Shown: positions 37,566 to 49,357 of the stretch, piece by piece
Layout of the letters: each line of letters begins with the position of its first letter
Numbering within the stretch: position 1 is the stretch's first letter
Source of the DNA: Planctomycetota bacterium
GTDB taxonomy: Bacteria > Planctomycetota > B15-G4 > JADJEK01
Direction: 5' to 3'
Assembly: GCA_044225365.1 (NCBI GenBank)
Contig: JBGAIQ010000015.1
Coordinates: 37,346 to 101,345 of the forward strand
Length of the DNA: 64,000 nt
The notes under the pieces: model-generated
Database searches by the model: none
The model's input: the letters and a program-made list of their open reading frames with translations, nothing else
Told to the model about the DNA's origin: nothing
Program-made: the position numbers and the translations under genes

Positions 37566-38891
37566 TCAGTCCTCGTTCGTCATCAGGTGCGAAGCATCGG
37601 GCTCGCGGGTGAGCCGCCTCGCAAGGCGATCGCGCAGGGACTCGATCGTGAGTCGATCGAGGATCTCGTTCGCGAAGGCATAGGTCAGGAGGTCGCGCGC
37701 GGTCGCGACGGCGATGCCGCGGCTGCGCAGGTAGAAGAGCGCCGTCTCGTCGATCTGTCCGATCGTCGAACCGTGCGAGCATTTCACGTCGTCGGCGAGG
37801 ATCTCGAGCTGCGGCGTGCTGTTGCACAGCGCTTCGTTCGACGTGAGCAGGTTGTTGTTCTCCTGCGCGGACGAGGTCTTCTGCGCGTCCTTGCGGACCA
37901 GGATGCGGCCGAAGAACGTTCCGCGGCTCTTGCCGCCGAGCACACCTTTGTAGTGCTCGCGCGACGTGGTGTGCGGAACGGCGTGATCGATCACCGTGTA
38001 GTGGTCGTGCTGCTTCGCTCCGTCGAGGACGTAGAGACCGTCGATCTCGCAGCTCGCGCCTTGGCCGAGCAGCGTGACGTACAGCGAGTGGCGATGGAAC
38101 GCGCCGCCGAGCGACACGACGAGCGAGCGATAGTTCGAGTCGCGACCGGTCTGGTGTACGCGGGTCGCGGCGATGTGGACCACGTCCGTGTGCTCGTCGC
38201 CGACCGTCACGTGTTCGAGATTCGCGCCGTCGGCGAGTTCGACGTCGACGACGACGTTGGCGAAGGACGCGCCTCCGCCCTCGGAGATGTGCTGCTCCAC
38301 GATCGTGGCCTTCGAGTTGGCGCCCGCGATCACGATCACGCGCGTGTGCTGCGCGATGCCGCCGCCGCTCGTCGACGACACGATCTCGATCGGCGACTCG
38401 ATCGCGGCGTTCGCGTCGATCGTGACGACGACGCCATCGGTGAACATCGCGGTGTTCAGCGCCGAGAAGGAGTGGTCGCGCGGACTGGGCGCGCCGAGGA
38501 AGCGCTCGAGTCGCGCGCCGTTGTCGAGCACGGCGGTGGCGAGGGATTCGATACGCAGGCCGGGCACTTTGGTCCCGAGCCCACTCGAGAGTGGGGGTGC
38601 TGCCACACGACCGTCGATCAGGACGATTCGAAGCGATCCTTCGGTGCCGACCGCGGGCGGAAGGTCGGCGGTGGTCGCTTTGCTCGTGAGCTGCGACGCG
38701 AGCGGCAGCTTGGTGAACAAGGCGGCGTTCGCGTAGCGCCACGCCTCCAGCTTGCGCGTGGGAAGGCCCGCTTCGACGAAGAACGCATGAGCGTCCTCGC
38801 GAGCCTTCGTCAGCCACGCGGGCTCCTTGCCGCGGACGAACGCGAGCCACTTCGAGAAGTCGAGCGCGGCGTGTTCCTTCACGTCGTTCAT
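37566..38891 (-). CDS. sufD: Fe-S cluster assembly protein SufD
   Basis: EAWRY, PQLEILADDVKCSHGSTIGQ, FYLRSRGI. Confidence 0.95.
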   Translation of the reverse strand: MNDVKEHAALDFSKWLAFVRGKEPAWLTKAREDAHAFFVEAGLPTRKLEAWRYANAALFTKLPLASQLTSKATTADLPPAVGTEGSLRIVLIDGRVAAPPLSSGLGTKVPGLRIESLATAVLDNGARLERFLGAPSPRDHSFSALNTAMFTDGVVVTIDANAAIESPIEIVSSTSGGGIAQHTRVIVIAGANSKATIVEQHISEGGGASFANVVVDVELADGANLEHVTVGDEHTDVVHIAATRVHQTGRDSNYRSLVVSLGGAFHRHSLYVTLLGQGASCEIDGLYVLDGAKQHDHYTVIDHAVPHTTSREHYKGVLGGKSRGTFFGRILVRKDAQKTSSAQENNNLLTSNEALCNSTPQLEILADDVKCSHGSTIGQIDETALFYLRSRGIAVATARDLLTYAFANEILDRLTIESLRDRLARRLTREPDASHLMTNED

Positions 38892-38898
38892 CGCTGCC

Positions 38899-39660
<762 letters not shown>

Positions 39661-39686
39661 GGAGTCATCCAATCCTTGTTCCATTC

Positions 39687-39745
39687 GTAGGGGCAGACGG
39701 CTGTCTGCCCGCCGTTGATCCGGGCGCACAGCCGTGCGCCCCTAC
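39687..39745. repeat. Inverted pair of GTAG-type REP elements (REPIN-like) between sufB and sufC
   Basis: 39687-39710 GTAGGGGCAGACGGCTGTCTGCCC (+) and 39722-39745, whose reverse complement is GTAGGGGCGCACGGCTGTGCGCCC. Confidence 0.85.
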
Positions 39746-39774
39746 GGCGTCGAGCTCCGCAACGGGTGAAACGA

Positions 39775-41220
<1,446 letters not shown>

Positions 41221-41225
41221 GGGAT

Positions 41226-41702
41226 TCACCTCACCGGAAGAGCACGCTGGCTCGCGTCGGCGCGCACTCCGAGCGTGAGCGGACCCGCCATCTGCGCAAG
41301 ACTGATCTCGGAGAGGGCCGCGTGGACGACTCGGTTGATCGTCTGCCAATTGCTCTTCACGGCGCACATCGCCACGATCGAGCAATTGACGGCTTCATTG
41401 TTGGTGCACTCGGTGATCGAGATCGGACCTTCGACGGCGGCGACGATGTCGGCGACGGAGATCGCGTCAGGGGTCCGAGCGAGACGGTAGCCGCCCTTCA
41501 CTCCGCGGGTCGAGGTGAGCAGGCCGTCGCGGCCGAGGAGCTTCAGGATCTTGCCGACCATCGGCTCGGGAAGATGAACATGGGCCGCGAGGTCACGGGC
41601 GTTGTAGACCGGGGGCGATCCGTCGACGCCGTCGCGCGAGTGATGCGCGAAGTACGTGAGCAGCACGATCGCGTAGTCCGCTTGGCGCGTCATCCGAAGC
41701 AT
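41226..41702 (-). CDS. Rrf2-family SUF system transcriptional regulator
   Basis: [21 protein letters not shown], three Cys (EC...NC...MC); heads the suf operon. Confidence 0.92.
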
Positions 41703-42748: not shown

Positions 42749-43342
42749 ATGGCACAGACAGTTCGGATCCTCGCATTTGCTGGAGCGGCGCGACGCGATT
42801 CGTGGAACAAGAAGCTTCTCGCGGTCGCGGTTCAAGGCGCGCGGGATGCCGGCGCCGAGGTCACGATCTACGACTTCGCGGAGTTTCCGCTTCCGCTCTA
42901 CGACGGGGATCTGGAGGCCGCGGGCGGCCTTCCCCCCAACGCGAAGAAGTTCAAGTCGCTGATGCGCGAACATCACGGCTTGCTGATCGCCTGCCCGGAG
43001 TACAACAGCTCGATCACTCCGTTGCTGAAGAACGCGATCGATTGGGCGTCGCGCCCCGAGAGCCCCGACGGCAAACCGGAACCGCCGCTCGTCGCCTACC
43101 AGAACAAGGTGGCCGGCCTCGTCGCCGCGTCCCCCGGTGCGCTCGGCGGCTTGCGCGGCCTCCGCCACGTCCGCGAGATCCTGTCGAACATCAACGTCCT
43201 CGTGCTCCCGCAGCAGTTCGCACTCAGCAAGGCGAACGAAGCCTTCGACGCCGCGGGCAAGCTGATCGACCCGAAAGCCGAATCCTCGGTGAAGGCCGTC
43301 GCAGCGAAGCTGGTAGCGACGACCTCCCGCCTCCTCGTCTGA
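42749..43342 (+). CDS. NADPH-dependent FMN reductase
   Basis: GAARRDSWN, PLYDGD, PEYNSSITPLLKNAIDWASR, GGLRG. Confidence 0.93.
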   Translation: MAQTVRILAFAGAARRDSWNKKLLAVAVQGARDAGAEVTIYDFAEFPLPLYDGDLEAAGGLPPNAKKFKSLMREHHGLLIACPEYNSSITPLLKNAIDWASRPESPDGKPEPPLVAYQNKVAGLVAASPGALGGLRGLRHVREILSNINVLVLPQQFALSKANEAFDAAGKLIDPKAESSVKAVAAKLVATTSRLLV

Positions 43343-43344
43343 AA

Positions 43345-43517
43345 CGACGGTCACGGACCGCGTCCGCCGCCGCCAACCCCGGCGGTTACGGATCGCAGCC
43401 GCCGCCGCCAGAAACCGGCGGTGACGGATCGCAGCCAAAACCGCCGGAACCGGCGGCGACGGATCGCAGCCAAAACCGCCGGAACCGGCGGTGACGGATC
43501 GCAGCCGCCGCCGCCAG
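43345..43517. repeat. About five tandem ~35-bp imperfect palindromic repeats between convergent genes
   Basis: Unit approximately CCGGCGGTGACGGATCGCAGCC(GCCG/AAAA)CCGCC, repeated without unique spacers. Confidence 0.85.
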
Positions 43518-43524
43518 CATGGCG

Positions 43525-44673
43525 TCAGCGTACTTCCTTCGGCTTCTTCGCGGGGGTGACGGCGGGGGCGGACTCCGCTTCGTTCACGAGTGTTTCGATC
43601 GCTTCGTCGAGGGACTCCTCGCTCGGGTCGAGGAAGCGGATCACATGCTGGGCGTCGAGCAGGTAGACGGTGGGATACGCGCTCACGTTGAATCGGCGCG
43701 CGATCGGCCCGCCGGTCGAGCCCTCGCAGAACGATCGCCAGGTGACCTGCTGCGAAGCGAGATTCGACTTCAGCTTGTCATCGATCTTGTCGGTGTTGAT
43801 GCCGAGAATGACGAACGGACGGTCCTTGTACTTCTCCACGAGCGACCGCTCGTGCGGGATCATGGCCCGGCAAGGGCCTCACCAGAATCCCCAGAAATCG
43901 AGCATCACCACTTTGCCCTTGTAGTCGGCGAGCTGGAACCCGACGCCATCGACGTCCTTGCCCTCGATCGGCGGGCAGGGCTTGCCGGCGACGAGATGGT
44001 CGAGCGCGAAGAGGGCCTGCTCCGCCGCTTCCCCAAGCGTGCCGCGCGAAGTCTTGACGTCGGCATACTCCTTCACGACCTTCTCGTACTCGGCGTGCGC
44101 CGCGGCAAGTTTCGCAGCGTCGTCCACAGCGGTCCATTTGTGGCTCGATGCCATCGCAAGGAGTGCCTTGCCGCGAACGGACCGCACGCTCGACTTCTCG
44201 ATCATCGCGACGAGCAAGCGCTCGGTCGGGCCCTGCGCGCCGTAGGAATATCGCGCCGCGAGGCCGCCGATCCGCTCGTCGTCGAGGTGATCCCGGATCA
44301 GGCGATCGACGACCGCGGAGAGATCACTCTCGCCGCGCGCCACGCTGATGGCGAAGAACAGCGCGTCGTACGCGTCGGGCGACTTCGAGCACTTCTCCGC
44401 GATCGCCATCGCCCGATCGAAGTACGACTTGTCGTCGGGCGCCAGCTTGCGCGCGGCGTCGCCGCGCTCCTCGTCGGTCTTCGCCGCCTCGATGGCTTCC
44501 CGTTGCCGGGAGAGCGCGGCATTGTATTCCTCGCGCAACGCGGCGATCGCCTTGGCGGCGTCGGTCGTCTGAGCGGCAACGGGAGCGGCGTCCTGCGCCT
44601 GCGCGCGAGGCGCCGACGCGAGCGGTAGAGCGAGCACGAGTGCTGCGCGGAAGAGGGATCGAGAGAGCTTCAT
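43525..44673 (-). CDS. Exported TlpA/thioredoxin-like selenoprotein (UGPC active site; in-frame UGA at 43881-43879)
   Basis: ORFs 43879-44673 and 43525-43863 are in the same frame and join as LDFWGFW-[TGA]-GPCRAMIPHE...YPTVYLLD; SECIS-like hairpin 24 nt downstream; signal peptide. Confidence 0.9.
43837..43854 (-). promoter_or_regulatory. Putative bacterial SECIS element
   Basis: CACGAGC-GGUC-GCUCGUG: perfect 7-bp stem, GG-U loop, starting 24 nt 3' of the UGA. Confidence 0.75.
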
Positions 44674-44789
44674 GGATCTTCACGGCCTCCAAGAACATGC
44701 CGTATCGCGCGACATCCGACGGCACTCGAGCGCAACCCCAGCGAGATGACGCCTGCGGGCTCCACGGATGATAACACGCCAAACGAAAC

Positions 44790-44824
44790 CACCGGCGGGA
44801 TCGCGCAGGGCGTTCCCGCCGGTG
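44790..44824 (-). terminator. Probable intrinsic terminator between the two selenoprotein genes
   Basis: CACCGGCGGGA...TCCCGCCGGTG 11-bp stem followed by GTTTCGTTT on the minus strand. Confidence 0.55.
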
Positions 44825-44860
44825 TTCACCGGAATCGGTGCAGATCGCGATGTCGCGCGA

Positions 44861-46018
44861 TCATTCGCCCGATTTCGATTTTGCCTTGTCGTCTGCGCTT
44901 TTCGCCTTGGATCCGGGATCGGGCGCCTTGCCCTCCGCTTCGGCGATCACCTGATCGAGGAGCTTCTCATCCGGCGACCCGTGACCCTTCCAGCGGATCT
45001 TCCGGTCCTTGTCGAGCAGGTACACCGTCGGCCAGCCCTGGACGTTGAACTGGGTGGCGATCGGTCCGCTCGTGCTTCCTTCGAAGAAGGAGCGCCAGGT
45101 GATGTTCTCTTTCTTCTGCGCGTCGATCAGCGTCTGCTTCTTCTCATCGCTGTTGACGCCGAGGATGACGAAAGGCTTGTCCTTCAATCTTTCCACGAGC
45201 GACCGCTCGTGTGGGATCATGGCCCGGCAAGGGCCTCACCAGAAGCCCCAGAAGTCGAGCATCACCACCTTTCCCTTGTAGTCGGCGAGTGAGAACTTCA
45301 CTCCGTCGACGTCGCTGCCGGAGATCTCGGGACACACGCTGCCGATACCGAGGTTCTCGAGCTCGTACACCGCCTTGCGTGCGATATCGCCGAGTCGACC
45401 CATCGGGGATTTGATCCCCGAGTAGTTCTCGATCACGTCGTTGTAGAGGTCGATCGCCTGCTTCTGGAGCGTGGCGTCGCCCGTGTTCTCCGACTGTTCC
45501 TTCAGCCCCTCGGCCTTGCGGAACGTCGCCTTGCCCTTCACGGAGTCGTGCGGGCTCTTGGCGATGAGCGCGTCGCACAGCTTGTCGGCGGGCGGCCCGT
45601 AGACGACCATCGACGCGTCTCCCAGGGATTCGCTCGCGATGTAGTCCGCGATCAGCGTATCGATGATCGTCGCAGACGTCTTCGGATCCTGGCTGAGTTC
45701 GAGCGCCCAGACGAGCGCGCTCGCGGCGATCTCCTGGCCCTTCGCGGCGTCGGCGATGGCGATCGCCTTCGTCGCGTATTCATCCGACTTCGGATACTTG
45801 GTTTCGATCAGTTTCTTGCGCTCGTCGTCGGTCGTAGCCTTCTGATACAGCTCGCTGAATGCGTTTTGCGCATCCGAGAACTGCTTCTGCAGCGCAGCGA
45901 GATCGGCCGCCGGGTCGCCGATTCGGGCGAACACCAGAGGCTGCAGCAGGGGAGGCGTAGCGACCGCGCCCGGCGCGAGCAGAGTGCTCGTGATGCCGAT
46001 CGCGAACAAGAGGGTCAT
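44861..46018 (-). CDS. Exported TlpA/thioredoxin-like selenoprotein paralog (UGPC; in-frame UGA at 45238-45236)
   Basis: ATG 46018 with AAGGAG RBS; ORFs join in frame as LDFWGFW-[TGA]-GPCRAMIPHE...WPTVYLLD; identical SECIS-like hairpin. Confidence 0.9.
45194..45211 (-). promoter_or_regulatory. Putative bacterial SECIS element
   Basis: Same CACGAGC-GGUC-GCUCGUG hairpin, 24 nt 3' of the UGA. Confidence 0.75.
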
Positions 46019-46216
46019 TTTCGATTCTCCTTGTGAGTTGCAGCAGGCACCGGCATCGTCCGCTTTCCCGAGGCAGGGGTCAAGGGAACTCGAACCGTCT
46101 TCTCCGGCTGTCAACCGGGCCGAACTGCGCTACACTTCATCGATCGGCTCCCGCGCCTCGGCACCCTGCGCGGACTCCCCTTCCCACTCGAAATCGTTCG
46201 CTCTCGGAGAAACTGG

Positions 46217-49200
46217 ATGCGTTCCCAAATCGCTCCGCTCGGCGCGATCCTGGTCGTTGCATGCGCAGGCATCGCATCGGCTCAGGGTTCGTTCGTCAAT
46301 TTCGAATCGCCGCACGTCCATCCCCTCGAACTCACTCCTGACGGCACGCGGCTGCTCGCCGTGAATACCGCCGACAATCGGCTCGAGGTCTTCGCCGTAT
46401 TACCCGCGCAGCTCGCGCACATCGGTTCGGTACCCGTCGGACTCGATCCCACCTCGGTGCGTGCGCGGAGCAACGGCGAAGCCTGGGTCGTGAATCATCT
46501 CTCCGACTCGGTCTCCGTCGTCGACCTCGCGACGCTGCGGGTTCGCGCGACGTTCAAGACCCAGGACGAGCCCAATGACGTGGCCTTCGCCGGCACGACC
46601 ACGTCCCGCGCCTTCGTATCTTCCGCGACGGAGAACACCGTGTCGGTGTTCGATCCGAACAATCTGACGGCAGCGCCGACCCTCGTCCCGATCTTCGGCG
46701 TCGCGCCGCGCGCGATCGCCGTGTCGAGTGACTTCAAGAAGGTCTACGTCGCGATCTTCGATTCCGGCAATCAGTCGACGGTGCTCGGCGGCGGCGGGAC
46801 GATGGCGAACGTGTTCCCGCCCAACGTGGTCTCCAATCCCGCGGGTCCCTACGGCGGGCAGAACCCGCCGCCGAATGCGGGCAACGCGTTCAATCCACCG
46901 ATCGCCGCGGGCCTCCCCGCGCCGCCGAAGGTCGGCCTGATCGTGAAGAAGGACGCGACGGGCAAGTGGATGGACGACAACGCGCACGACTGGACTGCGC
47001 TCGTCTCCGGCAACAATGCATCGCTCTCTGGACGTCCGGTCGGCTGGGACCTCCCCGACCACGACGTCGCCGTGATCGACGCCGACTCGCTCGGGCTCAC
47101 CTACGCCGATCACCTGATGAATCTCGACATGGCGCTCGCGGTGAATCCGGCGAACGGCGAAGTCGTCGTCGTCGGCACCGAAGCGACGAACGAGATCCGC
47201 TTCGAGCCGAACCTCAAGGGCAAGTTCGTCCACGTCGTCGGTTCGCGCATCACGTCGTCCGGAGCGTTCGTCGCGACGAAGGACCTCAATCCGCACCTGA
47301 CGTACGGCGTGTCGAGCATTCCGCAGAGCGATCGCGACAAGTCACTCGGCGATCCGCGCGGAGTCGCGTTCAGCGCGAACGGATCTCGCGTCTTCGTGAC
47401 GGGCATGGGTAGCAACAACCTCGTCGCCTTCGACAGCACGCTCACGCGGGTCGGCACCACCGCGACGACGACGATCCCGGTCGGCGAAGGACCGACCGGC
47501 GTCGTGGCGCATCCGCTGACCGGCATGGTCTTCGTGCTCAACAAGTTCGAAGGCAGCGTGTCGTGCGTCGATCCTGTCGCGCAGAAGGAAGTGGATCGCA
47601 CCGCGCTCGCGTTCGATCCCACGCCGTCCGTCATCAAGGTCGGCCGCAAGCATCTCTACGACACGCACAAGAACTCCGGTCTCGGCCAGATCGCGTGCGC
47701 GTCGTGTCACATCGACGCCCGCATCGACCACCTCGCGTGGGACCTCGGCGATCCCTCCGGCGCGATGAAGGCGACGACGGGCCAAAACCTCGGCGCCAAC
47801 GTCCCCGGCCTCAACACGGGATTCCAGCCGTGGCACCCGATGAAGGGCCCGATGACGACGCAGTCGCTGCAGGACATCGTCGGCAAGGAGCCCCTGCATT
47901 GGCGCGGCGATCGCGCGGGTCTCGAGGAGTTCGCGCCCGCGTTCAAGAATCTGCAGGGCGATGACGTCCAGCTCTTGCCTGCGGAAATGCAGGAGTTCGA
48001 GGACTTCATCGCGTCCATCCACTACCCGCCGAATCCGTATCGCAACTTCGACAACACGCTGACGACCGCGATGAATACCGGCGTGAAGTCGAACGGCCGC
48101 TTCTCGCCAAAGGGCACGGCCTTGCCGGTCGGCAACGCGCAGCACGGTGCGACCATCTATCGTCCGCCCACATTGCTCGATGCTGCGGCGATCGCATGCT
48201 CGTCATGCCACACCCTGCCCGTTGGCATCGGCACGAACAGCAAGCTCGTGGGCTTCGCGTTCCAGCCGATCGCGACGGGACCGAATGGAGAACTCCATCA
48301 CATGCTCGTGTCGCAGGACGGCAATACGAACATCACGATGAAGGTTCCGCAGCTTCGGAACATGTACGAGAAGCGCGGCTTCGATACCAACCTGACTTCG
48401 AACGTGGCCGGATTCGGCTACCTGCACGATGGGTCGGTCGACACGCTCGCCTCGTTCCTGTCCGAGCCGGTGTTCAATCCGGGCGGCGATCAGGACCTCG
48501 CCGACCTCGTCGCGTTCCTCTTCCAGTTCGCGGGTTCCGACCTCGCGTACGGCGGCTCGATCCTCGAACCGCCCGCAACCTCGGCGAAGGACGCGCATGC
48601 AGCCGTCGGACAGCAGACGACTCTCATCGATTCGGGAACGCCCGCTGCGGGCCAACTCGCACTCATCGATCAGATGGTCACGGTCGCGAACACGAACAAG
48701 GTCGGACTCGTCGTGAAGGGCATCCAGGGCGGCCTGGCGCGCGGGTACTACTACGTCGGCGGCAACTCGTTCCAGAGCGATCGCTCGACGGAGACGCGCA
48801 CGGTCGCGCAGTTGAAGTCTTCGGCGGCGCCGGGATCCGAGCTCACCTTCACCGTGGTGCCGTTCGAATCGCGCGTCCGCATCGGCGTCGATCGCGACGA
48901 GGATGGCTGGTTCGATCGCGACGAGATCGACGCGCTCACGAATCCGAACGATCCGACGAACTACCCGGGATGCGGATCGGCGCTCGCGTACGGCCAGGGT
49001 TGTCCAGGCTCGGGCAATCGCATTCCACGGGTCCAGGTCACGGGCTGTCTGAAGCAGAACGGCAACGTCGTGTTCACGCTCGACAAGGGCAATCCGAATG
49101 CCCTCGCTCTCCTCGTGTTCGGCCTGACGCAGGCGGCGCAACCGATCGGCGGCGGTTGTTATCTCAACGTCGCCCCGATGCTCCCGCCGCTCGTCGGTCC

Positions 49201-49357
49201 GTTCCCGCTCGACGCGAACGGCTCGATCTCGTTCCCCGCAGCGATTCCGGCGGGAGTGGGAGCGGGCGTCGTCACGATGCAGGGCATCGTCCAGGATGCA
49301 GGCGTGCCGATCGGCTTCACGACGACGAACGGCCTGCAGCTCACGTTCTCGCCCTGA
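46217..49357 (+). CDS. Secreted YVTN-like beta-propeller / di-heme cytochrome c peroxidase-like (bCcP/MauG superfamily) protein with shared C-terminal domain
   Basis: Propeller repeats (VPVGLDP, IPVGEGP); CASCH and CSSCH hemes; KVPQLRNMY...GYLHDG; DRDEDGWFD Ca-binding-like repeat; CTD ending NGLQLTFSP. Confidence 0.85.
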   Translation: MRSQIAPLGAILVVACAGIASAQGSFVNFESPHVHPLELTPDGTRLLAVNTADNRLEVFAVLPAQLAHIGSVPVGLDPTSVRARSNGEAWVVNHLSDSVSVVDLATLRVRATFKTQDEPNDVAFAGTTTSRAFVSSATENTVSVFDPNNLTAAPTLVPIFGVAPRAIAVSSDFKKVYVAIFDSGNQSTVLGGGGTMANVFPPNVVSNPAGPYGGQNPPPNAGNAFNPPIAAGLPAPPKVGLIVKKDATGKWMDDNAHDWTALVSGNNASLSGRPVGWDLPDHDVAVIDADSLGLTYADHLMNLDMALAVNPANGEVVVVGTEATNEIRFEPNLKGKFVHVVGSRITSSGAFVATKDLNPHLTYGVSSIPQSDRDKSLGDPRGVAFSANGSRVFVTGMGSNNLVAFDSTLTRVGTTATTTIPVGEGPTGVVAHPLTGMVFVLNKFEGSVSCVDPVAQKEVDRTALAFDPTPSVIKVGRKHLYDTHKNSGLGQIACASCHIDARIDHLAWDLGDPSGAMKATTGQNLGANVPGLNTGFQPWHPMKGPMTTQSLQDIVGKEPLHWRGDRAGLEEFAPAFKNLQGDDVQLLPAEMQEFEDFIASIHYPPNPYRNFDNTLTTAMNTGVKSNGRFSPKGTALPVGNAQHGATIYRPPTLLDAAAIACSSCHTLPVGIGTNSKLVGFAFQPIATGPNGELHHMLVSQDGNTNITMKVPQLRNMYEKRGFDTNLTSNVAGFGYLHDGSVDTLASFLSEPVFNPGGDQDLADLVAFLFQFAGSDLAYGGSILEPPATSAKDAHAAVGQQTTLIDSGTPAAGQLALIDQMVTVANTNKVGLVVKGIQGGLARGYYYVGGNSFQSDRSTETRTVAQLKSSAAPGSELTFTVVPFESRVRIGVDRDEDGWFDRDEIDALTNPNDPTNYPGCGSALAYGQGCPGSGNRIPRVQVTGCLKQNGNVVFTLDKGNPNALALLVFGLTQAAQPIGGGCYLNVAPMLPPLVGPFPLDANGSISFPAAIPAGVGAGVVTMQGIVQDAGVPIGFTTTNGLQLTFSP

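Follow-up and report, generated by a model that had tools for sequence, protein, structure and literature searches.

Two adjacent minus-strand genes, here called A and B, lie in the 64,000-nucleotide stretch of contig JBGAIQ010000015.1 (Planctomycetota bacterium, assembly GCA_044225365.1) that we analyzed as a whole and refer to as the window. Each is cut in two by a stop codon inside a redox motif. Are these genes broken, are they separate short genes, or does the internal UGA encode selenocysteine (Sec, U)? Under genetic code table 11, positions 43525-46114 hold four minus-strand open reading frames (ORFs), 45236..46114 and 44861..45220 for A and 43879..44673 and 43525..43863 for B, and each pair is split by a single in-frame TGA. 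We conclude from the sequence evidence, with a probability of about 0.9, that A and B encode real selenoproteins. It is also very probable that they are intact, tandemly duplicated genes for exported two-domain proteins. The main features are the following.

44861..46018, minus strand: coding sequence (CDS) of gene A, ATG at 46018, terminal TGA stop (44861-44863) included; 385 amino acids (aa), predicted Sec at residue 261
43525..44673, minus strand: CDS of gene B, ATG at 44673, terminal TGA stop (43525-43527) included; 382 aa, predicted Sec at residue 265
45236..45238, minus strand: in-frame UGA of gene A (putative Sec261), at the first position of the UGPC redox motif
43879..43881, minus strand: in-frame UGA of gene B (putative Sec265), UGPC motif
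44990..45346, minus strand: thioredoxin (Trx)-fold domain (AhpC-TSA/Redoxin) of gene A, residues 225-343; PF00578, 66.2 bits; spans the UGA
43633..43986, minus strand: Trx-fold domain (AhpC-TSA/Redoxin) of gene B, residues 230-347; PF00578, 64.2 bits
45194..45211, minus strand: hairpin of gene A resembling a bacterial Sec insertion sequence (bSECIS), 7-bp stem CACGAGC/GCUCGUG, loop GGUC; codes for H-E-R-S-L-V
43837..43854, minus strand: bSECIS-like hairpin of gene B, with the same sequence as in gene A
45221..45235, minus strand: short hairpin GGCCC-UUGCC-GGGCC of gene A, directly 3' of the UGA; weakly conserved, role uncertain
43864..43878, minus strand: short hairpin GGCCC-UUGCC-GGGCC of gene B, directly 3' of the UGA

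Readthrough of the TGA gives KVVMLDFWGFW-U-GPCRAMIPHERSLVE in A and B, the context DFWGFW-U-GPCRAMIPHERSLV being common to the two, and the frame continues for 124 aa in A and 117 aa in B through a cis-Pro motif (WPT in A, YPT in B). This tandem arrangement with its continuing frame, as well as the 7-bp hairpin 24 nt after the UGA and the short hairpin abutting it, had been proposed in the initial annotation, and all were reproduced in both genes. The Pfam domains AhpC-TSA, Redoxin, Thioredoxin_8 and Thioredoxin cross the TGA in each gene, with PF00578 scores (66.2 and 64.2 bits) far over the gathering cut-off of 26. A Shine-Dalgarno-like AAGGAGA is located 7 nt 5' of the ATG of gene A at 46018. 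The initial annotation had called the N-terminal domains of the pair divergent; this was overstated, as these domains are homologous. When the whole proteins are compared, 333 residues align with 43% identity.

The residue expected at the TGA is indicated by the homologues. Every one of the 18 database homologues in our alignment A2 carries Cys where A and B have U, which bears out the earlier proposal that the TGA occupies the place of the first Cys. W264, C/U265, P267, C268 and P334 are invariant, and both the resolving Cys and the cis-Pro are found in 20/20 rows. The full-length Cys homologues are annotated as 'TlpA family protein disulfide reductase' of Gemmataceae and have the same two-domain architecture as A and B.

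We collected 41 distinct Sec-form loci with the TGA at the same column, four of them from this genome and 37 from further assemblies of the phylum, out of order-level loci together with 10 of 13 loci of named Planctomycetota and other metagenome-assembled genomes. These loci bear directly on the possibility that A and B are pseudogenes created by nonsense mutation, or that the TGA is an assembly error, as the table 11 stop interrupting each gene might suggest. The TGA, however, stands at the same column in A and B, in two more paralogues of this genome and in the 37 loci elsewhere, and the frame downstream of it is open and conserved. Since the TGA recurs at one column across genomes, we consider this explanation effectively refuted.

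Matches to the family were also sought in related genomes. Within the same order, 25 of 41 genomes gave a match at E <= 1e-20, and an in-frame TGA was present in 40 of the 46 matches, one of which (contig C13 of this genome) is an actual terminal stop. When 201 genomes sampled evenly from the phylum were searched, the family was present in 48 at E <= 1e-25. Of the 92 matches, 86 contain one TGA or more, counted regardless of its position, and genes lying side by side as a pair were seen in at least five further genomes of this sample. A quick maximum-likelihood tree of 68 Trx domains (midpoint root) placed 38 Sec and 5 Cys forms in one clade (Shimodaira-Hasegawa-like approximate likelihood ratio test, SH-aLRT, 96), beside a clade of 16 Cys forms, with A and B as sisters (91). 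Cys forms with the motif CPIC nest among the Sec forms, and this nesting would fit Sec-to-Cys reversions as one possible direction of change.

We also searched the genome (6.53 Mb, 103 contigs, 94% complete, 65% G+C) for the Sec machinery, which had been named in the initial annotation as a check, and found it complete. The refuting conditions named there, as far as computation covers them, all left the selenoprotein reading standing. A tRNA-SeC(tca) is encoded at C95:99943-100040, and selA (486.6 bits), selB (346.5 bits; C66:132448-134334) and selD (361.5 bits) all score over their curated cut-offs. selD (C90:87455-88375, locus L010) lies directly downstream of selA on contig C90 and is itself Sec-encoded, with an in-frame TGA in SSCAG-U-AAK. 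Across the order, 39 of 41 genomes gave a selA match.

Given this machinery, it is very unlikely that the UGA is read as Cys, Trp or Gly by a Sec-independent mechanism. The inserted residue is not distinguishable by sequence alone, and some other systems are known to insert Cys at Sec codons. On the other hand, A, B and selD all end in an ordinary TGA stop, so TGA is not globally reassigned here; the full Sec machinery is present, and the hairpin described below fits a SelB-type model.

A and B are not isolated cases in the genome, which has at least seven Sec genes, six of them for proteins of the Trx or peroxiredoxin (Prx) fold; 7 of its 24 AhpC-TSA matches contain a TGA. A third close Sec paralogue, on contig C85, has the motif and the hairpin as in A and B. 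The fourth paralogue is distant (contig C75:~51054, plus strand, locus L021): it reads YW-U-GPCKAGVPHINQLV, and groups in the quick tree with a second Sec form from locus L059. Its hairpin, UCAACC-AGUU-GGUUGA, is of another sequence, sits about as far from the UGA and has an energy that does not reach the -7.5 kcal/mol of the bSECIS model given below. Several Cys paralogues with WCGPC are also encoded.

Two more candidate selenoproteins were seen at C14:47534-47902 (plus strand) and C61:13418-13801 (minus strand). One is a BCP/PrxQ-type peroxiredoxin with TPG-U, a known TxxU Prx selenoprotein type; the other is Trx-like, with RGFW-U-VSC after a hydrophobic N-terminal region. ARAGORN also reported an odd 'tRNA-???' (two-base anticodon loop call, cc) at C14:29812-29886 and a 'permuted tmRNA' at C66:115766-116566 that overlaps the standard transfer-messenger RNA (tag ADNSQYALAA). 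Both are probably prediction artefacts.

Next, we consider the RNA element. The hairpin CACGAGC-GGUC-GCUCGUG is a perfect 7-bp helix starting 24 nt from the UGA in both genes, with its loop beginning 31 nt from the UGA. It belongs to the minimum-energy fold of the 47-60 nt 3' of the UGA and has an energy of -10.5 kcal/mol when evaluated alone and -11.8 kcal/mol in a 20-nt fold, again in both genes; only 1 of 200 shuffles folded as well as the latter. As given in the model description of a 2026 review (PMC13188914), the consensus bSECIS has an apical loop of 3-9 nt with a G within its first two positions, an upper stem of 4-16 bp, a UGA-loop spacing of 16-37 nt and a minimum free energy of at most -7.5 kcal/mol. 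The hairpins of A and B lie within all of these published limits (loop of 4 nt, G first, 7 bp, 31 nt). With a strict, bulge-free scanner written for this analysis, 26 of the 41 Sec forms passed and none of 13 motif-matched Cys-position control sites did, at least 3 of these controls being spurious regular-expression matches and not homologues. Across relatives, 80% of cells pair in the 7-bp hairpin and 70.5% in the short hairpin adjacent to the UGA, which is lost in the UPPC variants. In Cys-form relatives of the same order (CPIC, n=3) the equivalent stem is broken by mismatches.

RNA-level selection shows in the codon usage within the 7-bp hairpin. In the 42 nt 3' of the UGA, A and B differ at one base (CCA/CCG), synonymous and outside both stems, while the 42 nt on the 5' side carry four differences, all synonymous (GGA/GGC, AAG/AAA, GAC/GAT and GGC/GGA). 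This count of one against four in 14 codons each, and the RNA-level constraint read from it, come from the initial annotation; the count was confirmed, and the constraint is now seen over 25 loci and not just between two paralogues. Among 39 close Sec forms, the hairpin codons are almost fixed: His is CAC in 34/34, Glu GAG in 34/36, Arg CGG in 26/29, Ser UCG in 26/26, Leu CUC in 33/33 and Val GUG in 29/37. A nearby Leu at +24 varies (CTG 13, CTC 11, TTG 3, CTA 1, CTT 1), and a nearby Ser at +29 uses UCG in none. In the 25 loci that encode HERSLV, the hairpin has 1 variable column in 18, the upstream flank 25 in 45 and the downstream flank 34 in 45, and synonymous codon pairs differ in 47/1200 cases inside as against 1966/4319 outside; as these 25 sequences are related, the contrast is descriptive and carries no probability. 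Gene conversion as the source of the near-identity of A and B around the UGA was considered and rejected, because this stretch is conserved to the same degree in other genera.

The RNA element may also dictate the Ser of HERSLV: CGG-UCG gives the GGUC loop, and the sister Cys clade has Glu at this place. If this is true, the Ser would offer a clear example of an amino acid that is fixed by an RNA element.

Several observations weigh against the selenoprotein interpretation or limit it. About 10% of random genomic TGAs (524/5000) pass the strict scan in this GC-rich genome, so that agreement with the bSECIS model is enriched at the family sites but not decisive alone. The scan rejected 15 of the 41 Sec forms, owing to other or shifted hairpins at those loci; subgroups that encode HEKEMV, HEREMV, PAVAELV and similar sequences are of this kind. 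RNAalifold over all 41 Sec-form sequences returned no consensus structure. The 7-bp hairpin is mostly invariant, a both-sided change being found in one pair only (C-G to G-C, in 2 sequences), and its support is therefore synonymous-site conservation among related sequences and not covariation. In two genomes with Sec forms, which are 73% and 84% complete, selA was not found. As judged by eye, the hydrophobic N-terminus of gene A has no charged n-region, and in the homologous loci (flanks of 1.5-3 kb) no conserved gene neighbour points to a substrate. We conclude that the bSECIS-like element is well supported for A, B and their closer relatives, and is not one universal structure across the family. 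A search of 43000-46500 against Rfam (E <= 10) gave chance-level matches only and no SECIS family.

Two orthologous Sec forms without the GGUC hairpin (L057:4447-4524 and L060:180-257; UPSC/UPGC ... AELVQL/AKLVEL) were also observed. They have the hairpins GGAGCU-CGUGC-AGCUCC and GAAGCU-CGUGG-AGCUUC, respectively, which differ by one compensatory G-C to A-U change and lie ~39 nt 3' of the UGA, just beyond the 16-37 nt range of the consensus model.

The way in which these genes are stored in public collections raises the question of whether the UGA mainly terminates translation, giving an N-terminal protein that ends in DFWGFW and perhaps a separate product from the Met of MIPHERS. Gene callers routinely split selenoproteins of this type at the Sec codon, and fragments of 264, 112 and 119 aa of A and B are stored in the public protein collection as separate products of this contig. 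The prediction that gene callers would break the pair into four fragments thus held for these three, but the N-terminal piece of A was not seen listed among the products of this contig. A search with the C-terminal piece found 436 clusters (90% identity) of 61-196 aa, mostly unnamed or 'hypothetical protein' and in a few cases 'peroxiredoxin' or 'Thioredoxin-like' among the clusters listed, and 9 of 9 C-terminal fragments fetched start no more than two residues away from the Met of M[IFY]PHERSLV. Hundreds of such fragments, and an ATG 6 codons after the UGA, are what termination would lead one to see; partial termination at Sec codons is in any case expected under selenium scarcity. However, neither fragment is a complete Trx fold, because the Pfam domains span the TGA, and the C-terminal piece has neither a signal peptide nor the redox motif. 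Full-length Cys-form homologues exist, and the frame, the motif and the TGA are conserved across the 41 loci with a constrained hairpin at the expected SECIS site. We therefore judge termination as the main outcome to be highly improbable, and Sec insertion remains the preferred interpretation of the UGA.

With Sec insertion, A and B would work as follows. Each protein would have two domains, an N-terminal one of ~200 aa that is specific to the family and, after it, a TlpA/ResA/Prx-like Trx-fold domain with U-G-P-C. During translation, SelB with Sec-tRNA(Sec) would bind the 7-bp GGUC-loop hairpin within the CDS and deliver Sec to the UGA; the terminal TGA of A and B has no such element, and translation would stop there. 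In the periplasm, the protein would act as a thiol-disulfide reductase or isomerase, as its family suggests, with the Sec selenolate making the nucleophilic attack and the Cys three residues after Sec resolving the intermediate. Re-reduction would proceed via a DsbD/CcdA-type membrane protein; a DsbD_TM protein is encoded on contig C93 and could supply the electrons. For A and B themselves, the actual insertion of selenium, the export, the reductase direction, the electron donor and the substrate are what we infer.

Proteins of this kind have been described before. Prx-like selenoproteins with UxxC were reported in 2005-2006 from the Sargasso Sea and Deltaproteobacteria (PMC1088965, PMC1794560, PMC9312934), and a 2022 review defines the Prx-like thiol:disulfide oxidoreductase selenoproteins by pfam00578 together with UxxC/UxxU (PMC9312934). 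By that definition of domain plus motif, A and B fall in this known family: PF00578 is over its cut-off in both and the active site is UGPC. They have in common with the described members PF00578 as best Pfam match, a distant likeness to Prx, a UxxC motif with Sec first and the existence of Cys-form homologues, and differ in the extra N-terminal domain of ~200 aa and in their Planctomycetota origin. The Sec machinery of planctomycetes is already on record (PMC4807772). The string 'Planctomycet' has 0 occurrences in the selenoproteome reviews PMC13188914 and PMC9312934, and full-text searches for selenoprotein with Planctomycetes or Planctomycetota, which did not cover the supplementary candidate list of PMC4807772, found no paper on this family.

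Compared with the classical TlpA/ResA/CcmG (DsbE) proteins, A and B have the same W-x-x-W-C/U-x-x-C motif, cis-Pro and, judging from the signal peptides, probably the same exported location, but carry Sec for Cys and the added N-terminal domain. Their NCBIfam equivalog scores (A/B) are far below the cut-offs for ResA (69.2/61.3 vs 170), TlpA (49.7/50.2 vs 230) and DsbE (39.3/25.7 vs 123.15). The ResA-like WAxxUGC selenoprotein (NF041054), or UGC TlpA family selenoprotein, likewise has a TlpA/ResA-like Trx fold with active-site Sec, but its motif is UGC instead of UGPC, and A and B, at 33.1/28.0 against a cut-off of 300, are not members of it. Known relatives with Cys include the Gemmataceae forms (Frigoriglobus tundricola, Gemmata), which have the same N-terminal plus Trx architecture, ~360-400 aa, 26-37% identity and, like A and B, the motif ...CGPCRAMIPHERE.V. 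They differ in having WATW-C where the Sec forms have WG[FYD]W-U and Glu where the Sec forms have Ser at the SECIS-loop position, and form a separate clade in the quick tree.

The GGUC loop also occurs in the fdhF SECIS. In outline, the elements of E. coli fdhF type resemble those of A and B in being intra-CDS hairpins 3' of the UGA with a small loop of G followed by G/U and a spacing of 16-37 nt, whereas in A and B the spacing of 31 nt is near the upper limit, the helix is a short perfect 7 bp and no lower helix is conserved. The hairpin of selD in this genome is different again (8 bp, loop CGUGA, 26 nt 3' of the UGA).

The remaining features of the two genes are listed here.

45353..45958, minus strand: family-specific N-terminal domain of gene A, ~residues 21-222; no Pfam family
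43999..44595, minus strand: family-specific N-terminal domain of gene B, residues 27-225
45959..46018, minus strand: putative signal peptide of gene A, MTLLFAIGITSTLLAPGAVA; atypical, n-region uncharged; read by eye; aligns with the signal peptides of homologues
44596..44673, minus strand: predicted signal peptide of gene B, MKLSRSLFRAALVLALPLASAPRAQA, then QD; charged n-region, hydrophobic core, AQA site; read by eye
44790..44824, minus strand: terminator-like hairpin in the A-B spacer, 11-bp outer stem, then GUUUCGUUU; from folding of the spacer

For the N-terminal domains of A and B, Pfam at E <= 10 gave nothing credible, and a profile search of the PDB matched the Trx domain only, leaving the N-terminal domain without a match; the closest solved structures were ResA (4nmu, E 5.6e-28) and TlpA (1jfu, E 7.6e-21), with DsbE/CcmG also found. 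The N-terminal domains may be helical and bind a substrate, as the initial annotation proposed. Both proteins had been said to carry signal peptides. The one of B reads by eye as a textbook example, but that of A is atypical as noted, and A may be exported. The 93-nt spacer between A and B folds at -47.4 kcal/mol (z -3.86); its terminator-like hairpin was missed by a simple terminator scan and suggests separate transcripts.

Upstream of A, in divergent orientation, lies a gene (46217-49357, plus strand) for a 1046-aa exported protein with an N-terminal beta-propeller (Lactonase-like), a weak match to di-haem cytochrome c peroxidase/MauG and two CxxCH motifs. We considered this protein as a substrate and rejected it: tblastn against the homologous loci gave 1 partial match, in a paralogue locus, and none beside orthologues, within flanks of only 1.5-3 kb. 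The convergent neighbour is a flavin mononucleotide (FMN) reductase gene (42749-43342), which adjoins a homologue in 1 locus only within the same flanks. Further away are suf Fe-S cluster assembly genes (37566-41385, minus strand), with two SufB/SufD genes flanking an ATP-binding cassette (ABC) ATPase, probably SufC. No genes for cytochrome c or copper maturation adjoin A and B. The interval that separates the gene B stop from the 3' end of the FMN reductase gene holds a 35-nt unit in ~5 tandem copies (43341-43517, 81% matches). On the minus strand, 128 nt of this array fold at -77 kcal/mol (z -3.7), and each unit has a CCGCCGG..CCGGCGG stem followed by UUUU; the array looks like terminator-like hairpins or hairpins of the repetitive extragenic palindromic (REP) type.

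A and B add two members to a protein type that is already known, and their value is in family-scale annotation and not in a new mechanism. In this genome they correct four mis-called ORFs; the wider point is the family. A search with the N-terminal domain found 720 representative clusters (50% identity, E <= 1e-3). Among the best 147 of these, the query's own aside, 129 end in W-x-x-W directly before the active site, in 4 the WCxxC is intact, and the other 14 are truncated in another way or unclear. The ESM Atlas, queried with the table 11 N-terminal ORF, returned only clusters of likewise truncated Planctomycetota 'peroxiredoxin family' proteins. That 129 of 147 clusters end before the active site points to a family that is mostly Sec-encoded and stored in truncated form in public databases. 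The invariant hairpin is a simple DNA signature with which such genes can be found and correctly annotated.

With at least seven Sec genes in this genome and the family in 48 of 201 phylum genomes, Planctomycetota appear to rely on selenium in their exported redox enzymes more heavily than is reflected in the literature searched. We give even odds to a broader proposal, in which the two-domain protein may stand for a large family of exported proteins, mostly confined to Planctomycetota, where Sec is the normal state and Cys the exception. If this is true, a selenium dependence has gone unrecorded in public annotation and in the selenoproteome reviews searched, and the periplasmic thiol-disulfide chemistry of much of the phylum would depend on selenium.

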